From an uncultured Gammaproteobacteria bacterium (GTDB taxonomy: Bacteria; Patescibacteriota; Microgenomatia; CAYQLK01): DNA of 64,000 nt. The stretch lies in NCBI GenBank assembly GCA_964404855.1, contig CAYOLO010000001.1, positions 297,322 to 361,321 of the forward strand. Direction: 5' to 3'. The position numbers and the translations under genes are program-made. The notes below the pieces were generated by a model. That model worked only from the letters and a program-made list of their open reading frames with translations, ran no database searches and was not told the DNA's origin. This document shows, in pieces, positions 4,354 to 36,611 of this stretch (the stretch's first letter is position 1; every line of letters begins with the position of its first letter).

Positions 4354-4401
4354 GTGGCCCCGGTTTTTCCTTTAATAAGGAAGACGGGGCCACTTTTTTT
4401 G
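4354..4401 (+). terminator. strong rho-independent terminator
   Basis: Stem gtggccccg/cggggccac, followed by TTTTTTT. Confidence 0.7.
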
Positions 4402-4523
4402 TTTTAAATTAGTCTTTATTGCAAATGTTTAATATTTTCTGCTAGAATCTAGCGGCTTTAACTCCGGTTGCGATATTTTGAAACCTGATTAGAGCAAATT
4501 TTAAAGAAAGAAGGAAATATAAA

Positions 4524-17091: not shown

Positions 17092-20000
17092 CTAGTTGAG
17101 GCTAAGCTCTTGGTTGATGATTAGATAGCTGACGGTCAGGTCTACTGTTTGAACTTGGGCAAGTTTAACCCTAAACCCTATACCAGCTAGTTTTTCTGTG
17201 ACGCTAACGGCAACTGGTAGATCTCCTTCGACTGTGAGCAGAATGATTGAGTTCTCGGTCACAGCAGTTGTTTCGACGTCAAATAGGTCGTATCCACTGG
17301 TTAAGAGTGTGTTGCCGGCGATGCGGTTGAGCGGATTTTCCTCGTCACCTTTAACTGTAATAGTACTGACTGTGAGGTCTTTAGTTTCGAGCTTGGCTAT
17401 TTTGACCAAACCTTCGGTGTCAATTACAAGTGATCCTCTGAGTAGGTCAAGTCCGCCAGAAGTTGGTAAGTTTTGTAGGTATAGAGTGCCTGATAGCACA
17501 TTTAATTGGCTGCCGAGACCGTCTGCGGTGGTATCGAGGGTAAATATTCCGTCCTGACTTAAACTTCCAGCAATATTAGTGTTACTTAGTGAGACTGAAT
17601 TGAGGAATTCAACTTCGTCTTTGAAAGTTGCTTGTTGTTCGACTGTTAGATTAATAACTGTTAAATCTTGAGGTTCTTGGTTTTCAAGCTCAGCTGATTG
17701 ACTAGATTCTGGTTGCGCACTTTCTGAGGCGCCAAGTACGGCAGACGAAGAGGCGATAGCGTCGGTAATCATCTTATCTATTTCTTCCCTAGTAATCGGA
17801 CCTTGGGCTTCTACTTGTTGGTTATTAGGAGTAACTTCGGAGTTTTCTTCACCATCGATACTGCCGTTGATGCCAATTAGAAGTTTGAGATTTTCTTCAG
17901 ATAATGTTGTTTGTCCAATGGTTATGGAATCATTAGCAACGATGTTCGTAGCTTCAATAATATCTTGGATTTGAGTTATTTCTGAGAGTATTTCTTCTTC
18001 AGTGAATTCTGTTTCTTCGCTTGTGGAATAGTTTGGAGCTTCCCCTGGGACAAATCCTCGTCCGTCTTGTTTGTTGGCAACATTGCCCCATTTTTCGTGA
18101 TCAAAACGAGGCGCGGTAAGACGATATGAGATTTCACAGTTACAGTTGCCGAAGATAGTTAAACGATTATTGGCTGGATCTCTTTCGTACCAGACTTTGG
18201 CGCGGCTGTCGTTAGCACTAAGAAGTACGACTAAGTCCTTCATATTTTGCCCAAAATCGGTGATTCGGTAGAAAAGCCCTAGGTCGCTTGAAGTTTCAAG
18301 TTCTGGGAAGTTGATTTGATATGAGAAGTTGCCAGTTGAACCCTCTGGGCGAGTAAGATTGGCAACGCCAGTTGTTTCTTCTTTTTGACCAGTCATAGAA
18401 GCTACATAAGTAGCGTATTTGGTACCATCGATGAAATATGGCGGGTCGATTGTTCCAAAGTCAACTTTAAGAGTTCCGTCGCCAAAGTTGATTTCTCCGT
18501 TGGTTGGGTCGTTACTCTGGATTACTGATCCATTGGTAAGGGTAATTGTTGAGGCAACCGGTGACGATTCCAATACAAAATGACTGTCTTCAGTCGCGCT
18601 GTTATTATTGCGACCTCCGAGATAGGAAGCTGATGTGTCTCTGACCCATCCCCATGCAGAGCTTGTGGTGGTGGTACAACTAGCACCAACACCATCGTTT
18701 TGACCTGCAACTTGAAGGACATATTTGGAGCCTGCTTGGACTAAGACTGGGGTCGTTAAGACAAATCTGGCCCAAGTAACCGCGCTACCGATATTTAATG
18801 TTTGGTAAGGTCCAGCGAGTAGTGTTCCAGCGCCATCTGAACCGTTTTCGTCATATATACAAACTGAAGCTTCCTCGGTTGCGCCCGCCATACTTATTTT
18901 GGCTTGGACGGTAGATAGATAAATATCAGCGGCTGGAGTGAAGGATTGGGTTTTTACAGCTGTAGCTGAGTTAACTGTGGTTGAGTTGCTAAAGAATCCA
19001 TGGTTGGTGTTTTTTGAGGCCTCCATAGTGAATAGGTAATCAGTCGAGGCGCTGGCTTCTGAGCGACCGCCTGAGTAAATATCAGAAGCAGAAACCGCCC
19101 ATTGCCAAGCTGATGAGGTAGTGGTGGTACATCCTGCGCCGACACCTGTGTTTTGTAGGGCAATTTGAAGAACGTATTTATTATTTCCAAGTAGCGGTAC
19201 GGCTGTGTTAAATGAGAATCTAACATGGCTTATTGTTGATGAAATATTGAGTGTTTGATTAGACATGGCAATTAGTGTGCCTGGGGCATCAGAGTTGTTG
19301 TCATAAATACAAGCAACAGCTTCTTCTGTACCGTTAGTTGATAAAATTTTTGCAACCACAGCAGTAACAGACATTGGGGTGTCTGGGGTGAATGATTGAT
19401 ATTTGGCTGTAGTGTCACTAGTACCGCTGGTGGCAGAGTTGATGATTGCGACACCAGTACCAGAGATGTCTGCGTAAATAGCACCTGTTGCAGAGAATAT
19501 TTCGCCACCGTCTGAGTTGGCGGTATCAAGAATTCTAAGAAGGTTGTTTGTTCCGTCGCGGAAGTTGAATATGCCGTTGTTAGCAACATCAATATTAAGA
19601 GTAGAAGCAGTTGTTGTGATGTCTCCACCGTTAACTGCCACATCGCTAGCGGTTGTAATCAGACCAGCTGTAGAAATACTCCAGTTATCGTCCGTAATTG
19701 AAAGGTTGGTGGTGCTGGCTGAACCTATTGTAATTGTGTTAGCAACTGCGCCGGTTCCAATTTGCACAGTTTTGGCGTTTGTGGCGCCAGTGGCAATTTG
19801 CACTGTTGTTGCTCCAGTGCCAGAGCCAATCGCTACGGTGTTTGTACCACTAGATTGGCCTAAAGTTAATAATCCGGTTTGGGCTGTACCTCCAAAGGTC
19901 ATAGTGCCAGTTGTGGTGCTAGCGCCAACTGTATATGTGGTTCCTGCAACACCATCTAAAGTAAAGTTACCACTACCTGCTCTGAGGTTAAGTGCGTTAG

Positions 20001-22512
20001 CTCCAGATGTATTACCAATTGTGATTGTACCTGTGTAGGAGCTAGTTCCAAGGTTAATCGCGGTTGATCCTGATGTGTTAATGTCAAAAGTGCCGGTGGA
20101 GGTAACACCAGTAGCTCCAGTAATTGCACCAGCGCCTGTAATGTCAAGGGAAGCTGTGTTGAGGAAGTTTGATACAGTTCCTGATATTTCGATAGCGTCT
20201 GTTAGGGTGCCCGAGGTATTGGTAATCATGAGCGCGTTGCTTAAGTTGCTTGAAGCAGCATTGTTTTCAATAAAAATTCCGTTCGTAACAGTTTCTGGAG
20301 TTTTAAGGTTCTCTACCTTGAATAAGGTATCAAAAGCACCAGTGGTAGCTGTGTCGGCTTGGGTTATAAGCATTCCATTAAGTGTGCCAGTTGCGCCTGT
20401 TCCGCTTGGCGTAAGGGTATATGTGTAGCCCGTAGTTGTGGCATCTGTTGTTGGTGTAAAGTTTTGAGCCCAAGTGTAAGTTGCTTGGTTTAGGATAAGG
20501 TTGGCATCGAGATCAAGGGTGTCAGCAAAATCTACAAAGTCAAGAGAGTTGGACGAAGAAGTGGAGTTACAGTTGCCATAGGTTGGTTGGTTACCTGTGC
20601 CGTTGCTTTTAAGACAATCTCCAGATGTGGCGCTTGGGTTGACCTGGTTAAGTACACCACCAGAGGCAATAGTGATAACTGAGCCAACAGTGCTAAGCGA
20701 GGAGAAAGTAATTGTGCCAGAGGAGCTAAGTCCTGTGAATGTAGCTACGCCTGGACCTGTTACACTCCAGTTAGCATCAGAGATAGCAATGTTAGCACTG
20801 CCATTGCCAATGGTGGCTGTGCCTGAATATGAGCTTGTACCAATGTTGATAGCAGTTGAGCCTGATGTGTTGATGTCAAAAGTACCAGTGGAGGTAACAC
20901 CAGTAGCTCCAGTAATTGCACCAGCGCCTGTAATGTCAAGGGAAGCTGTGTTGAGGAAGTTTGATACAGTTCCTGATATTTCGATAGCGTCTGTTAGAGT
21001 TCCAGCTGTGTTGGTAATGTTAATACCATTACTGAGCGTACCTGAGGCTGCATTGTTTTCGATATAAAGCCCGTTTGTGGTTGTTTCTGGAGTTTTAAGG
21101 TTTTCAAGTTTTAGTAGAGAGTCAAAAACGCCTGTATTAGCATTGTCGGATTGAGATATCACAAAACCTTGAAGTGTGCCCGAAGAACCTGTACCTGTTG
21201 GATTGAGTGTGAGCGAGGCTGCGTTTATGGTTGCATCAGAAGTAGGAGTATTAGTGATTTGAATATTGGATCCTTCACCGTTGGTCACGATTAAGTCACC
21301 TGTGCCGTTCGGCGCAAGTGTTAGCGAACCATTGCTGTTAGTGCCAATTGTGGCTGCGCCGCTGAAAATTAGGTTGCCCGAAGAATCTAGAACAGGAACT
21401 TGATTAATATCTGGTGTTTGTGAAGGGAAATAACCAGCTAGAGCGTCGGCGTTAAGTGCATAAGCACTAGAAACTATTCTTTGCCTTGGGGTCATTTCTG
21501 AATCGGCACCGACAGTGACTCCTAGATACAAAGTAGCATTCTCACTAAATAGAGTGCTAGGAATTGTTGTATCTGCAGCACCTGTGTCTCCAAGTAGGAC
21601 TGAAAAAATACCATTCGAGTCTGGTGTAATATTCCAAGTTTTTGATGTCCATTGAGCACTCCCACCTGATGACACAGTGTAGATTTTGAACACAAAGTCG
21701 GTAGCAGAAGTTATTGGAGAACCTGAAGCGTTAGTAATTCGACCTTGGAAAGAAAGAATTCTTGGAGGAGCAACAGCGGCAAGAACTTGACCTTCAAGTG
21801 GGGATGGTTGTGGCGTTTCAAGACTGATTTGGGTTCGGTTGGGGGTAAGCATGAATGTTGATCCAGAGATAACTAGCGCCATTGTGGCGAGCCCAAGGAA
21901 TATTTTTTGTGAGAAGTGTAATTTGGATTTTTTGGTTAGGGTTTTTTGTGGTAAGCCGAGGAGATCTGTTAGTGGCTTGTAAGAAAAACCCCATTTTTTA
22001 AGTTTTTCAAGCTCTTGAGAGAGAGCAAGAAGGCTGATTGCAGCTCCGACAGTCTGCGTTTCGGAGCTGCTGACAGCTTGATTTGCATTGTTTGCCTCAA
22101 TGCTGGCTGTGTTTGTAACTATCTGCTCTGTGGAGTGGTTTGTCAGGTGTGAAAACCCGTTTGCCTCAAACCATTTTGAGAGAGATTTTAGAAATTTGAT
22201 TTGTCGAGAAAGTGTGGATTTAGCAAACTTGTTCTGAACATCCTTGTGGTAGAGCTCGATTGTTTCAATATCGAGTTTGGGATAGTTGGTTCGATTTTGT
22301 TTAATCGACCAAATGACGAATTTCTTTAAATCGGAGCGGTAATTACTATAAGTTGATTTGGATGTTGACGAGAGGGCGAGTGTTTCGAAGTAACCTTTGG
22401 AAGCGTTGAGTATACCAAGAGCAAACTCTTTTTTGGAGTTTTGGACAGGTTTATTTATAGTGCTGGCAGGTATCTTAAGGCCTGAGGCAAACAGGACTTT
22501 TTTCATTGTCAA
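17092..22512 (-). CDS. giant (1806 aa) type-II membrane-anchored surface protein with an N-terminal cytoplasmic integrase-SAM-like domain, one TM, and a huge Thr/Ser/Gly-rich beta-rich ectodomain with internal tandem-duplicated modules
   Basis: N-terminus KSTYSNYRSDLKKFVIWS...IELYH...FAKSTLSRQIKFLKSLSKWF matches the phage-integrase N-terminal SAM-like pattern. TM IFLGLATMALVISGSTFML. Two ~230-aa near-identical modules and two ~150-aa QSFTP...CTTTTSSAW(Q/G)W domains. Confidence 0.75.
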   Translation of the reverse strand: MTMKKVLFASGLKIPASTINKPVQNSKKEFALGILNASKGYFETLALSSTSKSTYSNYRSDLKKFVIWSIKQNRTNYPKLDIETIELYHKDVQNKFAKSTLSRQIKFLKSLSKWFEANGFSHLTNHSTEQIVTNTASIEANNANQAVSSSETQTVGAAISLLALSQELEKLKKWGFSYKPLTDLLGLPQKTLTKKSKLHFSQKIFLGLATMALVISGSTFMLTPNRTQISLETPQPSPLEGQVLAAVAPPRILSFQGRITNASGSPITSATDFVFKIYTVSSGGSAQWTSKTWNITPDSNGIFSVLLGDTGAADTTIPSTLFSENATLYLGVTVGADSEMTPRQRIVSSAYALNADALAGYFPSQTPDINQVPVLDSSGNLIFSGAATIGTNSNGSLTLAPNGTGDLIVTNGEGSNIQITNTPTSDATINAASLTLNPTGTGSSGTLQGFVISQSDNANTGVFDSLLKLENLKTPETTTNGLYIENNAASGTLSNGINITNTAGTLTDAIEISGTVSNFLNTASLDITGAGAITGATGVTSTGTFDINTSGSTAINIGTSSYSGTATIGNGSANIAISDANWSVTGPGVATFTGLSSSGTITFSSLSTVGSVITIASGGVLNQVNPSATSGDCLKSNGTGNQPTYGNCNSTSSSNSLDFVDFADTLDLDANLILNQATYTWAQNFTPTTDATTTGYTYTLTPSGTGATGTLNGMLITQADTATTGAFDTLFKVENLKTPETVTNGIFIENNAASSNLSNALMITNTSGTLTDAIEISGTVSNFLNTASLDITGAGAITGATGVTSTGTFDINTSGSTAINLGTSSYTGTITIGNTSGANALNLRAGSGNFTLDGVAGTTYTVGASTTTGTMTFGGTAQTGLLTLGQSSGTNTVAIGSGTGATTVQIATGATNAKTVQIGTGAVANTITIGSASTTNLSITDDNWSISTAGLITTASDVAVNGGDITTTASTLNIDVANNGIFNFRDGTNNLLRILDTANSDGGEIFSATGAIYADISGTGVAIINSATSGTSDTTAKYQSFTPDTPMSVTAVVAKILSTNGTEEAVACIYDNNSDAPGTLIAMSNQTLNISSTISHVRFSFNTAVPLLGNNKYVLQIALQNTGVGAGCTTTTSSAWQWAVSASDIYSGGRSEASASTDYLFTMEASKNTNHGFFSNSTTVNSATAVKTQSFTPAADIYLSTVQAKISMAGATEEASVCIYDENGSDGAGTLLAGPYQTLNIGSAVTWARFVLTTPVLVQAGSKYVLQVAGQNDGVGASCTTTTSSAWGWVRDTSASYLGGRNNNSATEDSHFVLESSPVASTITLTNGSVIQSNDPTNGEINFGDGTLKVDFGTIDPPYFIDGTKYATYVASMTGQKEETTGVANLTRPEGSTGNFSYQINFPELETSSDLGLFYRITDFGQNMKDLVVLLSANDSRAKVWYERDPANNRLTIFGNCNCEISYRLTAPRFDHEKWGNVANKQDGRGFVPGEAPNYSTSEETEFTEEEILSEITQIQDIIEATNIVANDSITIGQTTLSEENLKLLIGINGSIDGEENSEVTPNNQQVEAQGPITREEIDKMITDAIASSSAVLGASESAQPESSQSAELENQEPQDLTVINLTVEQQATFKDEVEFLNSVSLSNTNIAGSLSQDGIFTLDTTADGLGSQLNVLSGTLYLQNLPTSGGLDLLRGSLVIDTEGLVKIAKLETKDLTVSTITVKGDEENPLNRIAGNTLLTSGYDLFDVETTAVTENSIILLTVEGDLPVAVSVTEKLAGIGFRVKLAQVQTVDLTVSYLIINQELSLN
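19700..21280 (-). repeat. tandem duplication of a ~790-bp coding module inside the giant gene (identical core 20078-20215 = 20870-21007)
   Basis: The antisense track ORFs 20075.. and 20597.. share the identical 45-aa stretch LMSKVPVEVTPVAPVIAPAPVMSREAVLRKFDTVPDISIASVRVP at a 792-bp offset. Confidence 0.6.
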
Positions 22513-22897: not shown

Positions 22898-23428
22898 TTA
22901 ATCCTTATTCTTGAACGCTTTGAATTTGGTAATACCAAGATAGATTACTGTTAATGAAAGAATGCCGATAATTATTCCAGCTAAGAAGTGATTATTTTGA
23001 ATCGCGAATAATAATTTTAGTGGGGCGTTAAGAATAGTGGTTGGAGATTCTGGATTAAGTAATCGATAAAGAGCGATTTGTTGTTTTTCTAATTCGTCTA
23101 TTTTGTCAATTATTTCATCTTTTTCGGGAGGGGTTAGTGGTTTGCCTTTAGTAGGAGTAGGTATAGCAGTTGGAGTCGGTGTAGGGGTGCTGGTGGGTCC
23201 AGGAGTAGGTGTAGATGTTGGTCCTGGGGTTGGTGTTGAAGTGGTGCCTGGAACTGGTGTAGGGGTTGGTGTCGGTGTCGGTGTTGGGGTTGCTGTTGGA
23301 CAAATATTTACACAAGCTGTGGTGTTGACGTCTTCAGCGCGAACTTCTGTTTGAATAATAAACAGTAGTACTAGTGATAGTAGTGGAATGGTTAGTTTGG
23401 GCAGCATTTGGGCAATATTATACTGCAT
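22898..23428 (-). CDS. small secreted Thr/Pro-rich protein with a C-terminal TM anchor
   Basis: Signal peptide, CVNIC, TPTPTPTPTP linker, coiled DEIIDKIDELEKQQ, and a C-terminal TM + KFKAFKNKD. Confidence 0.5.
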   Translation of the reverse strand: MQYNIAQMLPKLTIPLLSLVLLFIIQTEVRAEDVNTTACVNICPTATPTPTPTPTPTPVPGTTSTPTPGPTSTPTPGPTSTPTPTPTAIPTPTKGKPLTPPEKDEIIDKIDELEKQQIALYRLLNPESPTTILNAPLKLLFAIQNNHFLAGIIIGILSLTVIYLGITKFKAFKNKD

Positions 23429-23596: not shown

Positions 23597-24652
23597 TTAC
23601 TTCTTCTTTTGAATCTCTGCAATAATCTTGCGGCGGTATGCTCTCAGTGCGAGAACTATCAGCATAACGACTACCGCGATTGCAAGTCCAGCGACGGATA
23701 GAGCCTTCCAAGGGATTACCCAGAACGAAGTGCTTGAGCTTACAATGTCATTTTTGAGTCCGTAGCTAGCAATAACTTCTACGGTGTATTTTCCGAAACC
23801 AAATTCTGGATTGAATTTGCCAACGAAACTTCTGACTGCTCCTGGAAGAACCGAAAGGGCAGAGTTGTTAAATGATTCTCTAGAAACTTCGTTGCCGAAC
23901 ATGTTACGGACTATAATGTCTCCAGCAGGGGTAAGATGGACAGAACCTGAGTTTTCAAGTCTGGCTTCGATACTTACTGGTCCAGATTCGTACATAGACT
24001 TGTCTGTTTTGATGCTTGAGATAGAGAGAGCCTCTTCAACATCTCCAGAAACTCTAACTAAAACGACTGGTCCGGTTCTGGTAATAACTTTCGAACCAGT
24101 TCCAGCTGCTTTTTCAGGAGGAGTGGTGGTTATAAAAACAGCGCCAAAATGTCCGCCTGGTTCAGCGTCTTTTGGAACAGCGATTGAGAAACTAAAAGCT
24201 TCAGAAGATTTTGGATCAATGGTAACTTGAGTTTTTGAAGCTCTGATCCAACTAGCTAATGCGTATTGATTATTAAGTGGTGATTCAGAAAATACAGCAT
24301 CACCGTTTTCGTTAATTGTTTCAATATCAGCGAGAGTTACGTAGTATGTAAGCGGGTCGTCTGATTTGTTGTCGATAACAACTTGGTGAGAACTGGTTTG
24401 ACCAGGGTCTAGGTTGAGATCAAACTTGATTGGCGAGAATGTGATGTTGGTTTCAGCAACCTGCTGTTGAGCGGCTTGAGGTTGTGCTGAAGGAGTTGAT
24501 GCACTTGGTACTCCAATTGGTGTTAATGAATTATTTTCGGATTTGAGTGGTTGAGAAGAAGGGTTGGTTTGAGCTAGTACTGGTGAGGTAGCAAGCGAAA
24601 CTATAAAAGCGGACGAAGCCAATGTAATGGCTAGTTTTTTGGGCAGATTCAT
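23597..24652 (-). CDS. cell-surface protein: signal peptide, Q/P-rich linker, beta-rich domain, C-terminal TM anchor + basic tail (CscA/DUF916-like architecture, tentative)
   Basis: MNLPKKLAITLASSAFIVSLATSPVLA signal. C-terminus SVAGLAIAVVVMLIVLALRAYRRK. Confidence 0.6.
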   Translation of the reverse strand: MNLPKKLAITLASSAFIVSLATSPVLAQTNPSSQPLKSENNSLTPIGVPSASTPSAQPQAAQQQVAETNITFSPIKFDLNLDPGQTSSHQVVIDNKSDDPLTYYVTLADIETINENGDAVFSESPLNNQYALASWIRASKTQVTIDPKSSEAFSFSIAVPKDAEPGGHFGAVFITTTPPEKAAGTGSKVITRTGPVVLVRVSGDVEEALSISSIKTDKSMYESGPVSIEARLENSGSVHLTPAGDIIVRNMFGNEVSRESFNNSALSVLPGAVRSFVGKFNPEFGFGKYTVEVIASYGLKNDIVSSSTSFWVIPWKALSVAGLAIAVVVMLIVLALRAYRRKIIAEIQKKK

Positions 24653-25747: not shown

Positions 25748-26809
25748 CTAAAAAATACCGTAGCTAGTGTAGGTGAGAGTGTTGGTGTAAGTACCAGGCT
25801 CCTGTGTACCAAGGATTTCTAGAGAGTAACCGACATTACTAGCAAAGGCGCTAACAGCAGCTGATTCGTCCTGAATCTTGTAGGCAGTGGTACCAGTGAA
25901 CCCGGCAAAGCTTGTGCCGACGGATGAGAAAGATGACCCACCCCAAGTATCACTGGAAGCAAAGCCGAAATGACCTGGTGAGGTAGGTGTTGACCAAGTT
26001 GTTTCTGAGCCAACTGAAGGTGGTGTACCATCATCAAACGAGTTGATAGTGTCTGAGGTACCGTTGGTTAGGTTAGCAGATTGGGCAACAAAGCTTCTAA
26101 AACCAGCAGTAGCGTTAGTGGAGACTGTTAAAGTATGACAGTGAGTGTATTGGGTTGAAGTCGAAAGATTAACACCGTTGTTGAAGTTAATTGAAGAAGC
26201 AGTCGTTCCACTCGATTCGCAAGTGTCACCACCAGAACCAACAGTACCAGATGTTTTGGCAGTAACAGCAAAGTCAAAAGTAGCACCAATTGAAGCTGAA
26301 ACAGTAACTTGATCCTCAGTTAAGATGTCAACGGCAACATTAGACGAGTCTCCGTCTGTGTAGGTGCCGTCGTTGTTAGGGTCAGTTTCAATAACGAATA
26401 CATAAGTAGCAGCTGCAGGGTTGGAAATAGCTGATGTTGTAAGCGTGACCACATCACCTGAACCACAACCAGAAACAGAAGTAAGGTTGGTAACATTTGA
26501 TGACCAAGCGCCGGTTGTAGCTGAACAGCCACCTGTAGCAGAGAAACCTGGGGTACCGGTGTAGGAGAAGCTTGCTTGGGTGATTCTTATTTTAGATGAG
26601 CTACCAAGAGTAGTGGATAAAGTGAATGTCCAAGTGTGGGTGGCAGAAACACCAGTTTTTTGACGGGAAAGGGCATTGCTAACACTCGTAAGTGAGGCTG
26701 CGGCTGTTTGTTTGGGGGTAAGCGTAATTAAAGTGGTCGAAAGAACAACTGCAATAAGGCAGAGTACCGATAGTTTTTTAACGGTTTTGGTTGTTTGGCG
26801 CAGTCGCAT
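25748..26809 (-). CDS. secreted beta-rich surface protein, paralogue 2 of 3
   Basis: Signal peptide. The C-terminal ~198 aa are identical to paralogue 3. Confidence 0.7.
   Translation of the reverse strand: MRLRQTTKTVKKLSVLCLIAVVLSTTLITLTPKQTAAASLTSVSNALSRQKTGVSATHTWTFTLSTTLGSSSKIRITQASFSYTGTPGFSATGGCSATTGAWSSNVTNLTSVSGCGSGDVVTLTTSAISNPAAATYVFVIETDPNNDGTYTDGDSSNVAVDILTEDQVTVSASIGATFDFAVTAKTSGTVGSGGDTCESSGTTASSINFNNGVNLSTSTQYTHCHTLTVSTNATAGFRSFVAQSANLTNGTSDTINSFDDGTPPSVGSETTWSTPTSPGHFGFASSDTWGGSSFSSVGTSFAGFTGTTAYKIQDESAAVSAFASNVGYSLEILGTQEPGTYTNTLTYTSYGIF
25770..26346. repeat. ~580-bp perfect direct repeat, copy A (3' half of paralogue 2)
   Basis: Identical embedded track ORFs 25819..26037 and 26973..27191, and identical flanking sequence. 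The offset is 1154 bp. Confidence 0.8.
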
Positions 26810-26901
26810 TCTTAATATAAAAAGATGTTATCCCAATGATTACAATTAGCTACTGGTTTGTCAATAACTGGAATTGGTTAATTTAACTTAACAATAAAAC
26901 T

Positions 26902-27981
26902 CTAAAAAATTCCGTAACTGGTGTAGGTAAGAGTGTTGGTGTAAGTACCAGGCTCCTGTGTACCAAGGATTTCTAGAGAGTAACCGACATTACTAGCAAA
27001 GGCGCTAACAGCAGCTGATTCGTCCTGAATCTTGTAGGCAGTGGTACCAGTGAACCCGGCAAAGCTTGTGCCGACGGATGAGAAAGATGACCCACCCCAA
27101 GTATCACTGGAAGCAAAGCCGAAATGACCTGGTGAGGTAGGTGTTGACCAAGTTGTTTCTGAGCCAACTGAAGGTGGTGTACCATCATCAAACGAGTTGA
27201 TAGTGTCTGAGGTACCGTTGGTTAGGTTAGCAGATTGGGCAACAAAGCTTCTAAAACCAGCAGTAGCGTTAGTGGAGACTGTTAAAGTATGACAGTGAGT
27301 GTATTGGGTTGAAGTCGAAAGATTAACACCGTTGTTGAAGTTAATTGAAGAAGCAGTCGTTCCACTCGATTCGCAAGTGTCACCACCAGAACCAACAGTA
27401 CCAGATGTTTTGGCAGTAACAGCAAAGTCAAAAGTAGCACCAATTGAAGCTGAAACAGTAACTTGATCTTCAGTTAAGATGTCAACGGCAACATTAGACG
27501 AGTCTTCGTATGTTCCATCGTTGTTAGCGTCGGTTTCTACAACAATGACATATGTGTTTGCGGCAGGATTTGTGCTAGCTGGAACAGTAAAAGTAACGGT
27601 GTCACCAGAATCACAGCTTGTAACAGAGGTTATGGAGCTAACAAAAGGGCTAGAACCGTTAAAGACACCAGCTGTTCCAGCACAAGAGTTGTTACCAGTA
27701 AATGTTGGAGTTAGTGAACCAAACGAAAAGCTAGAGGTGGTTAGTTTGACTCTAGAAGTGCCACCTAGAGTAGAGGCTAAAGTAAAAGTAAAAGTGTGAG
27801 TAGATGAAATACCAGTTTTTTGTCTGGACATTGCGTCAGTTACATTGACAAGGGAAGCAGCATTTACGGTTTTGCCACCGAACATGACGAAGTTAGGAAG
27901 ACCTATTAAAAGGGCAAGTACGAAAAGGAGCAGTTTTTTGAACTTATTCGTGTGAACTGACATTATTGTTATTATCATCAC
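26902..27981 (-). CDS. secreted beta-rich surface protein, paralogue 3 of 3 (mosaic: N-terminus like paralogue 1, C-terminus identical to paralogue 2)
   Basis: N-terminal half LVNVTDAMSRQKTGISSTHTFTFTLASTLGGTSRVKLTT... is ~85% identical to paralogue 1. The C-terminal half is 100% identical to paralogue 2. Confidence 0.7.
   Translation of the reverse strand: MMIITIMSVHTNKFKKLLLFVLALLIGLPNFVMFGGKTVNAASLVNVTDAMSRQKTGISSTHTFTFTLASTLGGTSRVKLTTSSFSFGSLTPTFTGNNSCAGTAGVFNGSSPFVSSITSVTSCDSGDTVTFTVPASTNPAANTYVIVVETDANNDGTYEDSSNVAVDILTEDQVTVSASIGATFDFAVTAKTSGTVGSGGDTCESSGTTASSINFNNGVNLSTSTQYTHCHTLTVSTNATAGFRSFVAQSANLTNGTSDTINSFDDGTPPSVGSETTWSTPTSPGHFGFASSDTWGGSSFSSVGTSFAGFTGTTAYKIQDESAAVSAFASNVGYSLEILGTQEPGTYTNTLTYTSYGIF
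26924..27500. repeat. ~580-bp perfect direct repeat, copy B (3' half of paralogue 3)
   Basis: See copy A. Confidence 0.8.
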
Positions 27982-27992
27982 AAAAAATATCT

Positions 27993-28925
27993 CTAGTTGT
28001 CAATTGGCTTTTTGGACTTTTTGAAGACTTTGATGCTAAGAATAATTGCAGTTAGTAAAAGTACTATTGTAATTAGTGGATAAGCGATATATCCAAGTGA
28101 GGGAATAATATAAATTGTGAATTCTTGAGATGTGTACTTAACACCATTGTCCCCAGTGACGGTGGAGCTTACCTTGTAGATGCCTGGAGTGGTGTCGGTT
28201 ATGTAGATTGCTGGTGGAATATTTTTTTCGAGAGTTGTTGTCATTTGTCTGACAGCTCCCGCTAAGATGTTTTGGGGAATAATCGGGATTATTTTTTGGC
28301 TTTTGCTATCAATTATCGAAGTCAAAACTATGGAACCTTCGATAGTTTGAAATTTATTTAGATTGTTTTGAACAGTGAGAGAAAGAGTAGATTTACCGAT
28401 TTGCTGAATTTTTTCTCCCGTTAAGGATATTTTGATATCACCTTCGATTTTTTTCTTGTCAAAAAGTGAAAGGATGATGTTTGAAGCTACAGACGGTTGG
28501 ATAGTAGCGGAGCTTTTTTTGGAATCAGGTTCAGGTGAAATTGGAGAGGCTAAAATTGCAAAATAAAAATCTTGTTCTTCAATTGTTTCAGGAACATTGA
28601 TGCGAAACCCGATTGTTTGATCTTCAGCACTGGTTGCTTTGGTAATTGGCGGGAAAAACTGCACCCATTTTGTAACAGGGTAGTTGGGGTTATCGGGTAA
28701 GAGTTTGATAAGGCCTTGAGTGCCATCGGCTTCAAATTGGCGAATGCTGAATTGATAAGTACTACCGGTATCGGCGGAAAACTTAAAAGTGCCATTAATG
28801 CCATTACCTGGTTTGCCTTTTATTTCGAAATGAGAGGGTTCAATCGCGACGGTCGAAGCATTAACTACATTATATATGGAGAAAAAAATTATTAAGCTAA
28901 AAAGCGGGGCAAGGACTTTTTTCAT
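27993..28925 (-). CDS. cell-surface protein: signal peptide, two beta-rich domains, C-terminal TM anchor + KKSKK tail (CscA/DUF916-DUF3324-like architecture, tentative)
   Basis: MKKVLAPLFSLIIFFSIYNVVNA signal. C-terminus YPLITIVLLLTAIILSIKVFKKSKK. Confidence 0.6.
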   Translation of the reverse strand: MKKVLAPLFSLIIFFSIYNVVNASTVAIEPSHFEIKGKPGNGINGTFKFSADTGSTYQFSIRQFEADGTQGLIKLLPDNPNYPVTKWVQFFPPITKATSAEDQTIGFRINVPETIEEQDFYFAILASPISPEPDSKKSSATIQPSVASNIILSLFDKKKIEGDIKISLTGEKIQQIGKSTLSLTVQNNLNKFQTIEGSIVLTSIIDSKSQKIIPIIPQNILAGAVRQMTTTLEKNIPPAIYITDTTPGIYKVSSTVTGDNGVKYTSQEFTIYIIPSLGYIAYPLITIVLLLTAIILSIKVFKKSKKPIDN

Positions 28926-28940: not shown

Positions 28941-31900
28941 TTAGTAGGTTCCGGTTAGGATATAGGTGACTTTTGTTTCATAATTACCAGCTTCTTGAGC
29001 AGAACTCACATTGACTTTGTAGGTAACAGTTATTTCACTGTCATTAGTTGTGCCGACATTGGACATAACGGCGACTGGGCTTTCTGCAAAAGCTAAGTCT
29101 GCAAAATGGCGGTAGTTACTGGTAAAGGCTGCATCAGTGCCAGTGACATTGGCTAAAGTGTAACCGAAACCATAAGTGGTGCTTGATGACCAAGCGCCAG
29201 CTGAGGTATGAGTAATATTGCTTGCGTCGCCAAGAACATCAGGGATATAGAATCCGGCGTAGTTAATATTGGCAAGCCTTGTTACTTCTTGAGCGGTTAC
29301 TTGATAGCCGCCTGGGGCATCAGAGACGACTTGTAGATTGTGATTGTTGGTAGCTGGAGTACCTGGAGTAAGAGTACCAAAGGCGATTGTGGTTGAAGAA
29401 ATTGTTAGCTCGAGTCGATTGGAGCCAATATTCCAGTATTGAAAACCAGAACCAAGGTCGTAGTTGGTTGATTCTCCTGGTCCAGCTGCTAGTACGCCAC
29501 CTGTATCTGTAAGTGTGTAATTAGTGGACGATTTTCTGTCGCCGAAACTACCAAATGCTCCATCCATTTCGAAGTTGGTTGAGACTAGTTTGCCTGAACC
29601 AGCAGGTGGTGGGTCAGCGGTGGTGTTGGCAGTGTCACTTCCTGTATCAGTACCATCGTTGGCATCTGTGTAGCTGAGGGTAATAACATCATCTAGGACC
29701 ATTTCGATGTTATTGTTCGAGGTTGTGTATGTTCCCCACGCTGAAGTAATACTGCCTCGGAAAATAGCTGTGGAGTTGCCGGTTTCGGTTAAAGTTTTGG
29801 TTTCGGAATCGCCAGTGGTAGTGGTAATGCTTACAGATAGTGTTTCGGCGCTGCCGCCGTTAAGGTTAACGGAAACATCAGTAACAGTCATATAAATAGT
29901 GTCGCCTTGAGTGAAGTTGTTGTCCTCGGAATATCCGCTGTCTGTTAATAGAATGGTATTTGAGTCGTAGTTGAAGTCGCCAGCGTTGGTCATAAGTCCG
30001 CCGTTATTACATACAGTGCCGGTGACATCAAGAGAGAAGCTGTCTAGATCGTAAGTACCGGTTATGATACAGAAATTTTCGTTGACTGTGGTGTTAACTT
30101 GTTGAGTGAAAGTATCAGTGTTGCCATCGTCAGAGTCGATTGTGAGGTTGCGCCATGTGTAGTTTGGAATATTGTAGACATCAGCAACTGTGTCGTTATC
30201 GCCAACAAAAATTACATAAGATCCGACCGAAAGAGTAGGTGTGGTTGGCAGTTCGTTACCTTCCATTTGTAGTGTATCGGCTACAGTAAATGTTGAACCA
30301 CAGTTGAAGTCAAAGGAGTTGAGGAAGAATGTACCGTCGGTGATTGTACAGGTTGAGCCAGTAGTGAAGTCTGTTGCCATTTGAGCAGTACCTGAGGATT
30401 TGTTGACGGTAAATACGCCTGACATTGTTCCGGCGTTTTGAGTGATGTTTTGGGTTGTGGCTGTACCACCCATGGTAAGTGTAAGATTGGCACCACCAAA
30501 GGTGTCGGTCGTACTCATTGAGAAATCACCTTGGACGGTCATGGTGTAGGCAGATCCTGGGTTTGAAAAAGCTCCGTCTGTGCGCGTGAAGTCATCGGTA
30601 ATTGTACAGGTGCTGGCGAGTGTTAGTGTGGAGCCTGCGTGGGTCATATTTTGTTCAACTGCACCCGTAATTGTGCCGCCTTCACAGTCAAGCGTGGAAT
30701 CAGTGTCTACGCCACCGTCTTCAAAAACCAATGTATTGCCTGCAACAACCAGAGTGCCACCAGAATCTTTAAGCACACTACCTCGAGTCGTAATTGTGGT
30801 TCCAGTCATTGAACCATTAACCGTAATTGAGCCGTATGTCGTGACACTGGCAACCATTGTAATTACACAACTTGCACTTAAGGTAAAGTCAGCTCCTTGA
30901 ATGGTTTTGGCAATATTGTGGGTACCAGCAAGGGTAGTAGAACAAGTAAGAGTAGAATCGTCGGTAGTGTCGGCGCCATCAAAAGTTAAGGTTTTGCCAC
31001 TAAGGTTGAATGTTGTTCCAGATGTATGGGTATAGTCTTTTTCAAGGGTAATTATTGTTCCAGAGTAGGTCATCGTAGCGGAGGCTCCATTGGTAAGACT
31101 ACCTCCATTGCCAGAAGTGGAATCCAGATTAAAAGTACTTCCAGAAATATTAGTTGTACCATTGTTGACATAGTTACCTGTCATTGAGATTGTTGTTACA
31201 GCAACAATACAACTGGTGTTAATTGTGACGGTTGCTCCGCCAGTTTTGTTAAAAGCTAAAGTTCCACCTAGGGTTCCACAGATAACTGTACTGTTGTCAG
31301 AACTACTTGACCCGTCGAGGGTAACAGTAATGCCTGTAAGGTTAAAAGTTCCGCTTTGGGTAAAATCACCCTCAATTGTCATGGCAGTTCCAGAGTAGGT
31401 AATTGTTGCACCACCATTATTGGTTAAATCTCCTTCGCCGCCAGTAAGATTATCGAGATTAAAAGTTGTACCACCATTATTAATCGTGCCGTTATTGATA
31501 ATATTTCCTGTCATCGAGATACCTGAACCTGGGGAGGCAACGGTACATCCGCTACCAATGGTGATGTCACCGTCACCGGTTTTGTTAAAACCAATACTGC
31601 CGCCAATTGTGCCTGAACAGGTGACAGTTGAGTCGTCGGAGGTTGTACTGCCGTCTAATGAAATTGTTCCGCCGTTATGAGTGTATGTGCCGTCATTAGT
31701 GAAGTTTTTGGCTACAGTCATTGCGACAGTTGCAGAATTTTGATAAGTCGCACTGGTGTTAATCAAAAAGTTTCCGTTTACATCGACTGTTGGATCGTTG
31801 GTGTCGGCGTTGACGGTTACTGAGTTAGTGTCATCGCCAATGGTTAAGTTGTTAGCTATGGTTATTGTTTGTGACGCTCCTGAGCCAAGAGTGTATGTGG

Positions 31901-34900
31901 CACTAGCTGCACTTGGTTCGAATGAGAGATTATATAGACTAATTGTGCCTGAACCACCGAAGGTTGGGGTGGCGCTGGCAGCTGTTTTGGCACTAAAGGT
32001 ACCACTAGCGCTTTGGGTAATGGAACCGCTAATTGAGACATCGCCCGAGCCTGCAGTGGTGGAGCCGACGGTGATATTGTTGGTACCAAGAGCAAATGTT
32101 CCAGTTGTGACAGTTAAATCGCCATTGGCTGTAATTGTACCCCCAGCGTTGAATGTTTCAGAAGCGTTAAGGGTTAGATTAGTAAATGTTAGAGTTGGAA
32201 TTGTGGTGTCTCCGGAACCGTTGTTGCCGGTAAATGCAAAGGTCGAAGTGCTACCAGTTAGGGTGGAGGAGGCGTTGACGGCTGTTGGAGTGCCGTCAGT
32301 GCCAGAAAGTGTCCAAGTACGGTTGCCGGCATCAAGAACTGTTGGGGCAGAGTCGCCGCCTTCGCCAAGTGTTAAGTCACCAGTAACATTAATTGCGCCA
32401 GTACCGCCTGTTTGGGTGGTAATTGTTCTTGAGGAGCCTGAGGAATTGGAAAATGTAAGGTTGACGAAATTCCAAGCAGTGGCACCCGAGGTAGCGCCAA
32501 AGTTTTGGGCTGCGGCCACTCTTTGTTTGAATGTACTTGTGCCTGTGTAGTTAATCGTACCGCCACCGGAAATTGCACCATTTACTGTAGTAGTTACCGA
32601 GGTTGAACTGCCAATTGTTCCTGTAACTACAAGCGAATTAGTAACAGTCATTGAAGAAGTTACTGTAGTAGTGAAGGTATTACTGATTGTTAGATTATAA
32701 ATTGCGATTGCACCAGAACCACCGCCAATATTGCCCGTACCGTTCATTGTGACGGTTGGTGTGCCAGCAGTGTTGGCGACTGCGCCAGTTGAAGTAGTTG
32801 TAATGTCACCACCAGCTATTGTCGTGTCGGCGTTAATATTAAGGGTGGCGCCAGCATCTACGAGAATGTCTCTCGACATAGCGTTGGTGGCGCTGCCGAG
32901 CGTGGCTGTAGCGCTGTCGTCGACATGAAAGTCAGCTGTTCCATTAGTCGTAACTGTTCCGTTTGGGGTGTAGGTTTTGCCGGTAAAAACTAATAGCTCT
33001 ATACCACTAGTAACGCTAAGGTTGTTACTCGATACAGTATATGGGATATCGCCATCATTACCGCTATCGTAGGTGTCCATATCGGTATTATCAACAGCTG
33101 TGGCGTCGTCAGATGTTACCGTCACAGTATTGGTATAGACAATATTACCTGTTGAGTTGCCAGAGCCATCAAATCTGATTACTGTTGCTCCGTCTGTGGC
33201 GTCATTATCAATCCAAACGACGATGCCTTCGCCGGCTGCTGGAGCAGAAATGGTCGCGTCAGAAAAAGCACCAGTTGAGTCATTACAGAAGGTTGTGGTG
33301 GTGACGCCGTTGCTGCGGATTGCTACATTGTAAGTTGGAGTGGTGTGATCACAGAGAGCTGGTGCCGAAGAAGTGCCCGCAGTATAGACATTACCTGACA
33401 CAGTGATTGGGTCGGCAGGGATAGACACGCTTGGGTAGGTGCAAGCTGACGAAAGACAGTCCGTAACTCCAGAAGGATTGTAAGTAAATACAGGCGTTAA
33501 TTGGTCGTTATCGTAAGCGCGGAAATAGTAGGTGGTAGCGGCGGCAACATCTTCGGCTTTTAGGGGATAGTCTACTTCCAGTATTGCCGAGGCAGAGTGG
33601 TCCATGTTGGCTCCAGCTGCAGCGTCTTTGTCAGATGTATAAGTGCCGTTTTGGGTTGTACCTGTTAGTGCGCTAGAGCCTACTGCGGTGTTGTCTGAAC
33701 AAGAACCACAGGTTTCTCCGCTAGTAGCGTAGCGCCAGACTGCAGATGTTTCTCCCGTGTCGCCAACATCAGTCCAAGTGCAAGTATCAGGGACGGTTGA
33801 TGGGGTACATCCGGAGGTGTATTGGAGTTTTTTTCTGGCGTCAGTTTGAGCTACGGCACCTCTTTCGTAATATTGCATTCTAAGGCGAATAAATTCTTCT
33901 TTGGCGACACTGCCTGTAGTGTTTTCTGCGGCCACTCCAGAAGATGGCGTGTTATTTGTTTCATCGTTATAGAATCGCCAATTGCGCTGCCAAGGTGTAT
34001 AGATTTTCCAAGTAAACTCATAGCTAAATGCCGAACCTTCGCCTCCGGTAGTACCGTCTGGAGCGGATGCGTTAGGGCAGGCAAGACCGTACATTGAGCC
34101 GTTGACTTCGACATCAGCTTGGGCAGTGCCACCAAAGCTTGAGCCGGTCCAAAGCTGGGCATACATGTCACAGTCAACATCGACAGTAAGCATCATGATG
34201 TCATCGGTATTTTCGTTCGGATAGAGTCTTATCCCTAATGAGTCATCTGATGTGGTAACGCCTGTTCTGGTCTTAGTGCCGTAACTAGAGGTTGGAGTGT
34301 AGGTCATAAAGTTACCGTCAGTTGTGGTACCTCCGTCGTTATAAACGACCAAACCAAGCCCTGATGTGCCACCAGCCTGTTGGCGCTGAAATACCGACGA
34401 AGATTGTTTGGCGTTTAATGTTTCTGTTCCTGTATCTGGACAGTTGGTAGTGTTGACACCGCCACTACACTCTGTCCAGCCGTTTGTGGAGTTGTCTGCC
34501 CGCCAGACGGCATGACTATAGTCGTCACCTGAGGTTCCAGTAGAGACCATAATCCTACTACTAGTCGGGTCGCCGTTTGTTTCTATCCAGAATCCAGCAC
34601 TCGCGTCAGTAAAGGCGTTATTCTCTCCACCCCAGCCTGAGCCAACGGTATAGACTTGATAGTTAACGTTGCTGTTTGTTGTGTGGAGATAGTTGACAAT
34701 GAATGTGTTGCTACTGCCACCACCTTGCCAAGCACCGTCAAAACATTGAGCAACAGTACATCCGGTTAGTCCTGCATCCAGTGCGGCAGAGAGACAGCTG
34801 AATGAACTGCCGTCCCAATAGCAAGCGAAAAGGTCGGAGTTAGTATCGGCAATTAGTACCATAATTCGATTAGATCTTTTGTCAGCGAGACGGCTACCAT

Positions 34901-36611
34901 CACTGATTACGCGAATCCATTGAGGTGTGCCGCCCGTACCTCCTGTGTGGAAGTCGACTTCGTTAGTAGCAGATGGTGATCCTGGAGAGGAGTCTGGTGA
35001 CCAAGCTGAACCATCCCAGAGTGCGTAGTAGAATTTGTCAGTAACACTATCTCCGTAGACAACCATTGCTCGACCGGAGAGTGATTCGTAGGCTATATCA
35101 AAAGCTCTTTCACAAGTGCTGGCGGTTTGAGCAGTATCACAGTCTTGGGTTGGTGTTGTGCCTGGATTGTTCCATTGAGCGGTAAAGTCTCCGTTGGCGT
35201 CACATCCTGTCGTACATGTTTCGACATATAAATCCCCGTTGACTTTGAGAGTGCCGATTATTTCTTCTTCTCTGGTTGGGGAAGTTTCAGCTACAGTCCA
35301 AAGTATAAAGCTAGTACTATTGGCGGCACCGTTAAATTCCGACCCAAAAGTTGAAGTTGAGGTAAAGGTTTTTCCTCTTAGGACGCCGTTAGTAGCTGAG
35401 GTATCGCCGTAAAATAAGTTACCGTTGGCTGTAACAGCGTCAGAGGCGATTTGCCACTCTCTGATTTCGCCAAAATCACCAATGATTAAAGGACCAAGGA
35501 GAAAAAACTCTGGACTGATATCTGGAGCGTCGAAGATATAACTAAGATTAAGTGTTTGCCCAGCAACAAGACTTGCTTGCCAAGTGAGTTTTTTGTCGTC
35601 ACCTTCGGTTGATTCAGTAAATACACCTTGTGATTTAGTGATAATAAAATTACTTGGAACTGTTTCAATAATTGTGCCTGTGTAGTTAGTATTGGCGGTA
35701 ATTTGCAGACTGACTTTGTAGTTAGCAGGAGGATAGATACGAGATGGGCCGGAACGTTTAATGATAAATGGATTATTTCCATTTACTTCGAAGAAGTCAT
35801 TAATTGTTCTGGTACCGTTTTTTGTTTCTGCCGAGTATTTGATGGTGTATGTGCCTATTTCGTCGCCGATTTGATATTCAGAAGAGTAGTCTGGGATATC
35901 AGTGATGTTATCAAGTCCACATTCACCGCTGGGGTTAATTTGACCATCTTTGGACGAGAGAATGCTGGTGTTTTTGGAAGGAGTAGTTATTTCGACAGTT
36001 AATTTGGCATCACAAATCGTGTGTCCTAAGTCGTCGACAGTTCCAAAGGATAGTTTGGCTAAATCATTAGGAGAGTAAATAGTTTGGTCGAAGTTAATTG
36101 CTAATACTCCCCATGTGAAATCTTGTTTAATATTTTTGATTTGCCCGTTTTTTTCTATTTCAACATCAAGTGTATATTTTCCTGGAGTAAATGAGCTTGC
36201 AGTGATTGTGTTGGTGTGAATATTGAATTCATTGGAGTTTTGTTTGATTGAAGTACCAATATTCTTAGCAATATTTCCATCAGGTTTTAAAATTTGAGCC
36301 TTAATATTATTGGAGGATAGAATTTGGGTCTCGTTGAGTTTGAGTTTGAATGTAGGGGACTCATCGACTCTAAAAGAGTTTTTTGGAAGTTCGACTACTG
36401 CTTTTGGATAAATTTCTGATTTGGGTAATGATTTAAAAACTAGAACAGTGCTTGCAATGATAATTAAGACAAAAATAAAAGCAAAAACAGTTTTAGAGTG
36501 GTCGGTTATTTTTTTGACCCTGCTAGTGGTGGAAAGTATTAGGTGGGCTTGAGGCTGAAGGGTAAAATTTTTTCTACGAAAAGGGTAGAAGTTTGGCAGG
36601 ATAGTTTTCAC
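28941..36611 (-). CDS. giant (2556 aa) N-terminally anchored surface protein: beta-helix/adhesin-like Thr/Gly/Ser/Asn-rich repeats, and a C-terminal domain homologous to the three small paralogues
   Basis: N-terminal signal-anchor FAFIFVLIIIASTVLVF. Long G/T/S/N-rich repeats. The C-terminus ...AGAWSSSTTYGFGYT...AQEAGNYETKVTYILTGTY resembles the paralogues' ...TTWSTPTSGGHFGFTST...TQPAGTYTNTLTYTSYGIF. Confidence 0.75.
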   Translation of the reverse strand: MKTILPNFYPFRRKNFTLQPQAHLILSTTSRVKKITDHSKTVFAFIFVLIIIASTVLVFKSLPKSEIYPKAVVELPKNSFRVDESPTFKLKLNETQILSSNNIKAQILKPDGNIAKNIGTSIKQNSNEFNIHTNTITASSFTPGKYTLDVEIEKNGQIKNIKQDFTWGVLAINFDQTIYSPNDLAKLSFGTVDDLGHTICDAKLTVEITTPSKNTSILSSKDGQINPSGECGLDNITDIPDYSSEYQIGDEIGTYTIKYSAETKNGTRTINDFFEVNGNNPFIIKRSGPSRIYPPANYKVSLQITANTNYTGTIIETVPSNFIITKSQGVFTESTEGDDKKLTWQASLVAGQTLNLSYIFDAPDISPEFFLLGPLIIGDFGEIREWQIASDAVTANGNLFYGDTSATNGVLRGKTFTSTSTFGSEFNGAANSTSFILWTVAETSPTREEEIIGTLKVNGDLYVETCTTGCDANGDFTAQWNNPGTTPTQDCDTAQTASTCERAFDIAYESLSGRAMVVYGDSVTDKFYYALWDGSAWSPDSSPGSPSATNEVDFHTGGTGGTPQWIRVISDGSRLADKRSNRIMVLIADTNSDLFACYWDGSSFSCLSAALDAGLTGCTVAQCFDGAWQGGGSSNTFIVNYLHTTNSNVNYQVYTVGSGWGGENNAFTDASAGFWIETNGDPTSSRIMVSTGTSGDDYSHAVWRADNSTNGWTECSGGVNTTNCPDTGTETLNAKQSSSVFQRQQAGGTSGLGLVVYNDGGTTTDGNFMTYTPTSSYGTKTRTGVTTSDDSLGIRLYPNENTDDIMMLTVDVDCDMYAQLWTGSSFGGTAQADVEVNGSMYGLACPNASAPDGTTGGEGSAFSYEFTWKIYTPWQRNWRFYNDETNNTPSSGVAAENTTGSVAKEEFIRLRMQYYERGAVAQTDARKKLQYTSGCTPSTVPDTCTWTDVGDTGETSAVWRYATSGETCGSCSDNTAVGSSALTGTTQNGTYTSDKDAAAGANMDHSASAILEVDYPLKAEDVAAATTYYFRAYDNDQLTPVFTYNPSGVTDCLSSACTYPSVSIPADPITVSGNVYTAGTSSAPALCDHTTPTYNVAIRSNGVTTTTFCNDSTGAFSDATISAPAAGEGIVVWIDNDATDGATVIRFDGSGNSTGNIVYTNTVTVTSDDATAVDNTDMDTYDSGNDGDIPYTVSSNNLSVTSGIELLVFTGKTYTPNGTVTTNGTADFHVDDSATATLGSATNAMSRDILVDAGATLNINADTTIAGGDITTTSTGAVANTAGTPTVTMNGTGNIGGGSGAIAIYNLTISNTFTTTVTSSMTVTNSLVVTGTIGSSTSVTTTVNGAISGGGTINYTGTSTFKQRVAAAQNFGATSGATAWNFVNLTFSNSSGSSRTITTQTGGTGAINVTGDLTLGEGGDSAPTVLDAGNRTWTLSGTDGTPTAVNASSTLTGSTSTFAFTGNNGSGDTTIPTLTFTNLTLNASETFNAGGTITANGDLTVTTGTFALGTNNITVGSTTAGSGDVSISGSITQSASGTFSAKTAASATPTFGGSGTISLYNLSFEPSAASATYTLGSGASQTITIANNLTIGDDTNSVTVNADTNDPTVDVNGNFLINTSATYQNSATVAMTVAKNFTNDGTYTHNGGTISLDGSTTSDDSTVTCSGTIGGSIGFNKTGDGDITIGSGCTVASPGSGISMTGNIINNGTINNGGTTFNLDNLTGGEGDLTNNGGATITYSGTAMTIEGDFTQSGTFNLTGITVTLDGSSSSDNSTVICGTLGGTLAFNKTGGATVTINTSCIVAVTTISMTGNYVNNGTTNISGSTFNLDSTSGNGGSLTNGASATMTYSGTIITLEKDYTHTSGTTFNLSGKTLTFDGADTTDDSTLTCSTTLAGTHNIAKTIQGADFTLSASCVITMVASVTTYGSITVNGSMTGTTITTRGSVLKDSGGTLVVAGNTLVFEDGGVDTDSTLDCEGGTITGAVEQNMTHAGSTLTLASTCTITDDFTRTDGAFSNPGSAYTMTVQGDFSMSTTDTFGGANLTLTMGGTATTQNITQNAGTMSGVFTVNKSSGTAQMATDFTTGSTCTITDGTFFLNSFDFNCGSTFTVADTLQMEGNELPTTPTLSVGSYVIFVGDNDTVADVYNIPNYTWRNLTIDSDDGNTDTFTQQVNTTVNENFCIITGTYDLDSFSLDVTGTVCNNGGLMTNAGDFNYDSNTILLTDSGYSEDNNFTQGDTIYMTVTDVSVNLNGGSAETLSVSITTTTGDSETKTLTETGNSTAIFRGSITSAWGTYTTSNNNIEMVLDDVITLSYTDANDGTDTGSDTANTTADPPPAGSGKLVSTNFEMDGAFGSFGDRKSSTNYTLTDTGGVLAAGPGESTNYDLGSGFQYWNIGSNRLELTISSTTIAFGTLTPGTPATNNHNLQVVSDAPGGYQVTAQEVTRLANINYAGFYIPDVLGDASNITHTSAGAWSSSTTYGFGYTLANVTGTDAAFTSNYRHFADLAFAESPVAVMSNVGTTNDSEITVTYKVNVSSAQEAGNYETKVTYILTGTY

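Follow-up and report, generated by a model that had tools for sequence, protein, structure and literature searches.

The 64-kb stretch of DNA analysed here, referred to as the window, contains an array of three tandem paralogous genes, named P3, P2 and P1 in the order of their transcription and all located on the minus strand, that encode secreted two-domain proteins. The genes P3 and P2 share a 576-bp segment that is in all probability the product of a recent intrachromosomal gene conversion between them, within a recurrent concerted evolution of the protein module that both genes have in common. The N-terminal domains of the deduced proteins can be assigned to a type A or a type B and the C-terminal domains to a type X or a type Y (Table 1). 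At the nucleotide level, the N-domain of P3 is 77.7% identical to that of P1 and 59% identical to that of P2, and the Y-type C-domain of P1 is 68% identical to the X-type. A preliminary description of this DNA had given an identity of about 85% for the N-terminal halves of P3 and P1, which is too high for the N-domain as a whole, as the values range from 66 to 89% per 60-nt interval.

A base-by-base comparison of the array revealed a direct repeat with an offset of 1154 nt that is exact over 539 bp (Table 1). On one side, the exact run is followed by a single mismatch at position 26315 and then by 36 identical bases up to position 26351; on the opposite side, mismatches are located at positions 25775, 25766, 25763 and 25757. 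The repeat that had been described as perfect over about 580 bp is real, but the interval originally assigned to it, 25770-26346, contains 575 identical positions out of 577 (99.65%), with mismatches at 25775 and 26315. All five differences between P2 and P3 within 25757-26315 are synonymous, and the final 199 amino acids of the two proteins are identical. The inclusion of the 3' flank in the identity had to be withdrawn, since the last 27 nt of the coding sequences contain the four mismatches at 25757, 25763, 25766 and 25775 and the sequences past the stop codons are unrelated: P1 starts 3 nt after P2, and P3 is followed by a unique spacer of 92 nt. The tract comprises the final N-domain strand together with the linker and the C-terminal domain. 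In gene orientation, its 5' edge is positioned directly after a two-codon indel within a conserved SSNVAVDILTEDQVTV segment and coincides with a drop of the N-domain types to about 60% identity, and its 3' edge is located at the end of the open reading frame (ORF). When the unconverted copies of a related locus (L003, see below) with their 84.8% identity are taken as background, the probability of an exact run of 539 bp is about 1e-39, and the repeat is therefore far beyond chance. No second repeat of the quality of that between P2 and P3 was found in the 64-kb window.

The C-terminal halves of P3 and P2 are 99.8% identical in the window, compared with 83-86% to their orthologues in the related loci L003 and L001. 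The synonymous divergence (dS) of P3 and P2 amounts to 1.74 in the N-domain and to 0.034 in the C-domain, as opposed to 0.75-1.25 between orthologous C-domains, and this contrast bears out the very recent recombination among tandem paralogues that had been proposed in the preliminary description. Since synonymous sites are unconstrained and approach saturation between orthologues, the identity of P3 and P2 cannot be attributed to selection at the protein level. Additionally, the tract is contained within the genes, whose flanks show no relationship, and this excludes a fresh duplication carrying its flanks along.

The genetic composition of the array was compared with that of related loci. The contig L003, derived from a metagenome-assembled genome (MAG), shows about 81% identity to the window over 21 kb in full synteny, with the gene order giant protein, 310-aa protein, P3, P2, P1, WxLIP-like protein, 176-aa protein and 1808-aa protein. 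The C-terminal halves of P3 and P2 in this locus are 84.8% identical and contain no long repeat. Since the L003 array is intact in the absence of any long repeat by which an assembler could be misled, the three-gene array is ancestral and not a product of the assembly. The same array is present in L001, which is 77-78% identical to the window and represents the same assembly or MAG as L002. Orthologues of P3 with the A+X composition and the same flanks were detected in L001, L003 and L012 at dS values of 0.8-1.5, and in every related locus P3 is composed of A+X and P2 of B+X. The P1 gene is A+Y in the window and in L003 and B+Y in L001, L004 and L014. Designating P3 as the mosaic member of the array is thus arbitrary, as the make-up of P3 and P2 is constant and the odd gene in comparison with L001, L004 and L014 is the P1 gene of the window. 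What varies from lineage to lineage is the combination of modules.

These loci also allowed us to date the homogenization relative to the separation of the lineages. The C-terminal halves show a star-like relationship, the X-type sequences of the window and of L001 and those of P3 and P2 of L003 all being 82-86% identical in pairwise comparisons. At the sites that differ between the two L003 copies, the window agrees with one or the other in a ratio of 32:38. The star pattern and this even split imply that P3 and P2 had identical C-terminal halves at the time of the separation of the window and L003 lineages. Within L003, the C-domain dS of P3 and P2 is 0.80 and equals that of the orthologues (0.75-0.81), reflecting free divergence since the split. 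The locus L001 contains a tract of its own that is exact over 570 bp (3969-4538) and ends exactly at the stop codon. The 5' edges of the L001 tract and the window tract are 35 nt apart and their sequences differ by 16.5%, and this shift together with the divergence indicates an independent conversion event. On the basis of these sequence comparisons, the conversions in the window and L001 lineages are regarded as separate re-homogenizations rather than as a one-off event.

Further traces of exchange were detected in other parts of the genes. The P3 and P1 genes of L003 share an exact run of 107 bp and are 93-98% identical over the alignment columns 180-360 of the N-domain, and the P2 and P1 genes of L001 are 93-98% identical over the columns 420-545, which represent the linker. 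The resulting grouping is discordant, with N-domains clustering by paralogue and C-domains by genome. Moreover, the N-domain of P1 in L012 and L015 (compared over 5834-6436 and 93-1151, respectively) contains about 180 nt with 95-98% identity to P3 of the window (about 27560-27740) in loci that are 86-89% identical overall. This local similarity hints at either an exchange between P3 and P1 or a recombination between lineages. The exchange of modules is accordingly occasional and takes place on an evolutionary timescale.

Some points weigh against the interpretation given here. The diagnostic sites favour neither direction of the conversion, from P2 to P3 or from P3 to P2, as the counts of 32 vs 38 are uninformative and fit a star phylogeny. 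An identical tract is displayed by two assemblies only, those of the window and of L001. Short reads cannot phase the centre of a 576-bp repeat, and the identity of 100% is thus an upper bound that may hide a few differences. Finally, the putative docking function of the C-domain discussed below was deduced purely from an analogy of gene neighbourhoods.

Linked paralogous sequences of surface proteins also recombine non-reciprocally in cassette-based antigenic variation, such as that of the Neisseria pilE/pilS genes, Borrelia vlsE and the repeats of Mycoplasma and Treponema. A programmed variation of this type, in which the paralogues serve as shuffled cassettes to vary an antigen or adhesin, is unlikely for the P1-P3 array, although the combinations of N- and C-terminal types vary by lineage (A+Y or B+Y in P1, and a P1 N-domain resembling that of P3 of the window in L012 and L015) and the proteins are presumably exposed on the surface of an episymbiont-type bacterium. 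The ratio of non-synonymous to synonymous divergence (dN/dS) of the orthologues amounts to 0.01-0.12 in both domains and to 0.01-0.08 for a conserved N-domain type, which places both domains under strong purifying selection. Each copy is a full-length gene that includes a signal peptide and occupies a syntenic position, silent or truncated cassettes are absent, and the cluster itself was not noted to contain any gene of an invertase or recombinase or another dedicated recombination sequence. Unlike cassette systems, the array is thus devoid of silent copies and of diversifying selection, and the tract of the window homogenizes and does not diversify. The pattern had been called typical of antigenic or adhesive variation, a view for which the low dN/dS values, the complete syntenic genes and a conversion that removes variation provide no support.

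The warning of the preliminary description that the repeat is prone to collapse during assembly turned out to be justified. The MEGAHIT and Logan contigs L004-L008 start within the terminal part of P2, at a distance of 32-198 nt upstream of P1, and the starting points of the Logan unitigs precede the end of the shared tract by almost exactly one k-mer. L016 breaks off 127 nt into the tract, and the first base of L015 is located 92 nt before the stop codon of P2. The loci L012 and L013 short-cut across the repeat: in L012 (4754-6436) a P3-type gene is joined directly to P1 and one 1154-bp unit is missing, and in L013 (1890-2981) the array is reduced to one P3::P1 chimera that precedes the WxLIP-like gene. 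This shortening reflects either real deletions by unequal crossing-over or short-cuts of the assembler. An artefact of repeat mis-resolution or of the co-assembly of strains might also account for the tract or the whole P2 unit of the window, in which case the real copies would be diverged or single. The disturbed contigs L004-L008, L012, L013 and L016 are compatible with such an artefact, as is the absence of the exact P3 protein from records elsewhere in an exact-sequence look-up, but it is very unlikely in view of L003, which carries the same three genes with no long repeat at all, and of L001, an independent assembly from a different lineage that has the same topology with a tract of its own. 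In addition, the copies of the window retain copy-specific single-nucleotide polymorphisms at both edges of the tract, and only the tandem order would accommodate the two N-domains together with the 92-nt spacer and the junction to P1. For practical purposes, metagenome assemblies of this lineage from short reads are interrupted at this site or silently lose one or two genes, and the copy number and the chimeric 'genes' of MAGs at this locus are untrustworthy unless long reads are available.

The view that P3 is a new chimeric gene generated by recent segmental duplication or unequal crossing-over is highly improbable, because P3 is old (the orthologues with A+X and the same flanks mentioned above) and its identity to P2 reaches into neither flank, even though tandem direct repeats favour unequal crossing-over and L012 and L013 resemble the reciprocal deletion products.

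Gene conversion between P3 and P2 could be accomplished by non-reciprocal homologous recombination, presumably of the RecA type, between the adjacent genes, by which the last N-domain strand, the linker and the whole C-domain of one copy would be overwritten by those of the other. The tract is bounded by homology, and an identity of about 60% in the upstream region is probably too low to sustain a heteroduplex. The X-type C-domains, with at least 85% identity, would remain substrates of RecA-type recombination and be homogenized periodically, and the Y-type C-domain (68% to X) and the A and B N-domains would mostly be beyond the recombination threshold.

Concerted evolution by RecA-dependent gene conversion is well established for the tufA and tufB genes of Salmonella, for rRNA operons and for the opa genes of Neisseria. 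The array resembles these cases in the gene-internal tract, the homogenized synonymous sites, the grouping of sequences by genome, the boundaries at a drop in homology and the recurrence in sister lineages. It differs from them in that P2 and P3 homogenize one module only, comprising the linker and the C-domain, while the N-domains stay 59% identical, and in that the sister lineage L003 escaped homogenization since the split. The phenomenon itself is textbook concerted evolution, and the value of the locus is practical and descriptive. It represents a natural experiment with one unconverted lineage and two lineages that were converted independently near the same domain boundary, which shows that the tracts are confined by a homology cliff at the domain junction.

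The genes of the cluster and the features of the repeat are summarized in Table 1. The ATG codon at position 27963 is likely to represent the true start of P3, yielding a protein of 353 aa as in L001, as the GTG codon at 27981 appears to be located too far upstream. Promoter-like sequences were recognized in front of P2 (TTGACA-N17-AATCAT at 26864-26836) and in front of P3 (TTGACA-N18-GATGAT in the region 27963-28003), both as consensus matches only, and a terminator-like hairpin at 23503-23475 is listed as following the gene of the 176-aa protein. In a scan for promoters and terminators, such motifs were not enriched over shuffled sequences.

Table 1. Coordinates of the P1-P3 gene cluster and of the segment shared by P2 and P3 in the window.
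Feature	Position	Strand	Characteristics
Probable conversion tract, P2 copy	25776..26351	-	576 bp, 1 mismatch to P3 copy; exact core 25776-26314
Probable conversion tract, P3 copy	26930..27505	-	exact core 26930-27468
P3	26902..27981	-	359-aa ORF from GTG; signal peptide, type-A N-domain, type-X C-domain
P2	25748..26809	-	353 aa; type-B N-domain, type-X C-domain
P1	24689..25744	-	351 aa; type-A N-domain, type-Y C-domain
P3-P2 spacer	26810..26901	-	unique sequence, outside the repeat
Giant 2556-aa protein	28941..36611	-	copy of the family C-domain in the last ~160 aa (about 28944-29420)
310-aa protein	27993..28925	-	signal peptide and C-terminal transmembrane helix; syntenic in L001 and L003
351-aa DUF916/WxLIP-like protein	23597..24652	-	PGBD domain, C-terminal transmembrane helix
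176-aa Pro/Thr-rich protein	22898..23428	-	transmembrane helix; conserved last gene of the cluster

The proteins P1-P3 belong to an unannotated family of secreted proteins of about 350 aa with two beta-sandwich domains. An exhaustive profile search yielded at least 464 cluster representatives of this family (clustered at 50% identity, E <= 1e-3), mostly with a length of 330-400 aa, whereas a word-index search detected only nine relatives. A scan of P1-P3 and 84 family members against Pfam and NCBIfam provided no family above the cut-off, and a profile search against all PDB sequences yielded nothing at E <= 10. The AF2 model of P3, calculated from an alignment of 84 sequences, has a predicted local distance difference test (pLDDT) value of 89 and comprises a signal helix (residues 15-32), an N-terminal beta-sandwich (45-169) and the C-domain (184-357). 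A Foldseek comparison of this model with the PDB resulted only in generic matches to tandem immunoglobulin (Ig)-type adhesins with a TM-score of about 0.2. The designation as surface-protein genes in the preliminary description is in agreement with these data, as P1-P3 encode secreted proteins of the surface type with signal peptides; a localization on the cell surface is presumed for all three. An LPXTG motif was not seen in P1-P3. A 902-aa protein encoded at 8850-11558 of the window contains a C-terminal sortase domain that is class F-like and scores below the family cut-offs.

The C-domain is not confined to the small proteins. The C-terminus of the giant protein matched the C-domain profile with 67.8 bits (E 1.2e-22) when hmmsearch was run with the --max option, the default filters of HMMER hiding this match, and the orthologue of L001 matched as well. 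The 351-aa protein scored 44.5 bits against the Pfam family PF06030 (WxLIP_PGBD; cut-off 27.3) and yielded tblastn matches to proteins of Actinomycetota and Bacillota that are annotated as DUF916; the 310-aa protein is organized in the same way and is weakly similar to it (E 6e-4). A comparable gene set is present in the more distant locus L009 (1471-7501), which encodes two tandem family members with about 30% identity to P1-P3, a 575-aa family member, a WxLIP-like homolog (E 2e-41 to that of the window) and a giant protein exceeding 4000 aa. The two tandem paralogues of L009 share no conversion tract.

The gene neighbourhood shows parallels to the WxL clusters of Firmicutes, which encode small WxL proteins, large WxL proteins and a WxLIP protein of the DUF916-DUF3324 type (PMC9772566, PMC10599100) and are defined by at least one WxLIP and at least two WxL proteins within four genes (PMC10599100). 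In both cases, a C-terminal domain, albeit a different one here, is common to small secreted proteins and a single very large protein, and both comprise neighbours of the DUF916 (PGBD) type with a C-terminal transmembrane helix, signal peptides and tandem small paralogues. The last strand of the C-domain is similar to its counterpart in a WxL protein of Paenibacillus (AGTYKSVFTYTATS vs PGTYTNTLTYTSYG). Unlike in the WxL clusters, the small proteins contain an extra N-terminal Ig-like domain and the host is a Patescibacterium and not a Firmicute. The DUF3324/HBD domain was not detected in the WxLIP-like protein, which does contain the PGBD domain and the C-terminal transmembrane helix, Trp-x-Leu motifs are absent from the sequences of P1-P3, and none of the 84 family members matched the Pfam family WxL (PF13731). 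Membership in the WxL family is not claimed here, as an hhalign comparison with 19 Paenibacillus WxL proteins aligned the last strand only (14 columns, probability 7.9%). By analogy, the locus would work like a WxL cluster, short of being assigned to the WxL family.

With this analogy as a guide, the C-domain may act as a shared module by which the proteins attach to the two membrane-anchored proteins of the DUF916/WxLIP-like type, and the distinct N-domains would form the outward heads. As a speculation, the C-domain types X and Y may pair with the 310-aa and the 351-aa WxLIP-like partners. A tentative extension of this view is that the locus represents an unrecognized surface-display system of Patescibacteria, analogous or very remotely homologous to WxL clusters, in which conversion keeps the docking module uniform and the N-terminal heads (A and B on X and Y) are exchanged between array positions. 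If this is true, an episymbiont would gain alternative host-binding surfaces. The similarity to donor-strand-exchange fibre protomers, such as the TLP-1b pond fibril (PDB 9IKK, PMC11494351) and Gram-positive pilins, is limited to the level of the fold; none of the PDB chains matched the family in sequence, and P1-P3 contain no LPXTG motif. In any case, the locus draws attention to an unannotated and fairly large secreted family that is linked to DUF916/WxLIP proteins in bacteria of the candidate phyla radiation (CPR), the cell-surface biology and host attachment of which are poorly understood.

With respect to its origin, the window is derived from an uncultured, ultra-small bacterium of the Patescibacteria/CPR. 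The nearest named relatives of its LeuRS protein are Ca. Paceibacterota, Pacebacteria and Komeilibacteria with 51-53% identity, and a small metagenomic clade was found at 71-95% identity. In the case of L003, the MAG label 'Gammaproteobacteria' was rejected, as the relatives of LeuRS are Ca. Paceibacterota, Pacebacteria and Komeilibacteria. The window has a GC content of about 40% and is chromosomal, encoding GAPDH, RadA, LeuRS, ArgRS and a 23S-5S operon. The genes of tRNA-Ala, 23S rRNA and 5S rRNA are located at 49470-53364 without an adjacent 16S rRNA gene, and such an unlinked rRNA operon fits a CPR/Patescibacteria genome.

Several minor features of the window were recorded outside the gene cluster. 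An 87-nt direct repeat with 95% identity (53403-53489 and 53668-53754) is located a short distance downstream from the 5S rRNA gene (53248-53364) and ends in a hairpin-like GC-rich segment that is followed by a run of T residues. A possible integrated element spans 55197-59577 and includes the genes of an excisionase-domain protein (55197-56321) and of a large serine recombinase (57224-58834), the 3' end of which overlaps the tRNA-Pro gene (58813-58888); an imperfect 66-nt repeat (59004-59069 and 59512-59577) is present on both sides of the tRNA-Arg gene. Finally, the 1806-aa ORF at 17092-22512 contains an internal 300-nt repeat with 84% identity (20011-20310 and 20803-21102) that is also present in its L003 orthologue.

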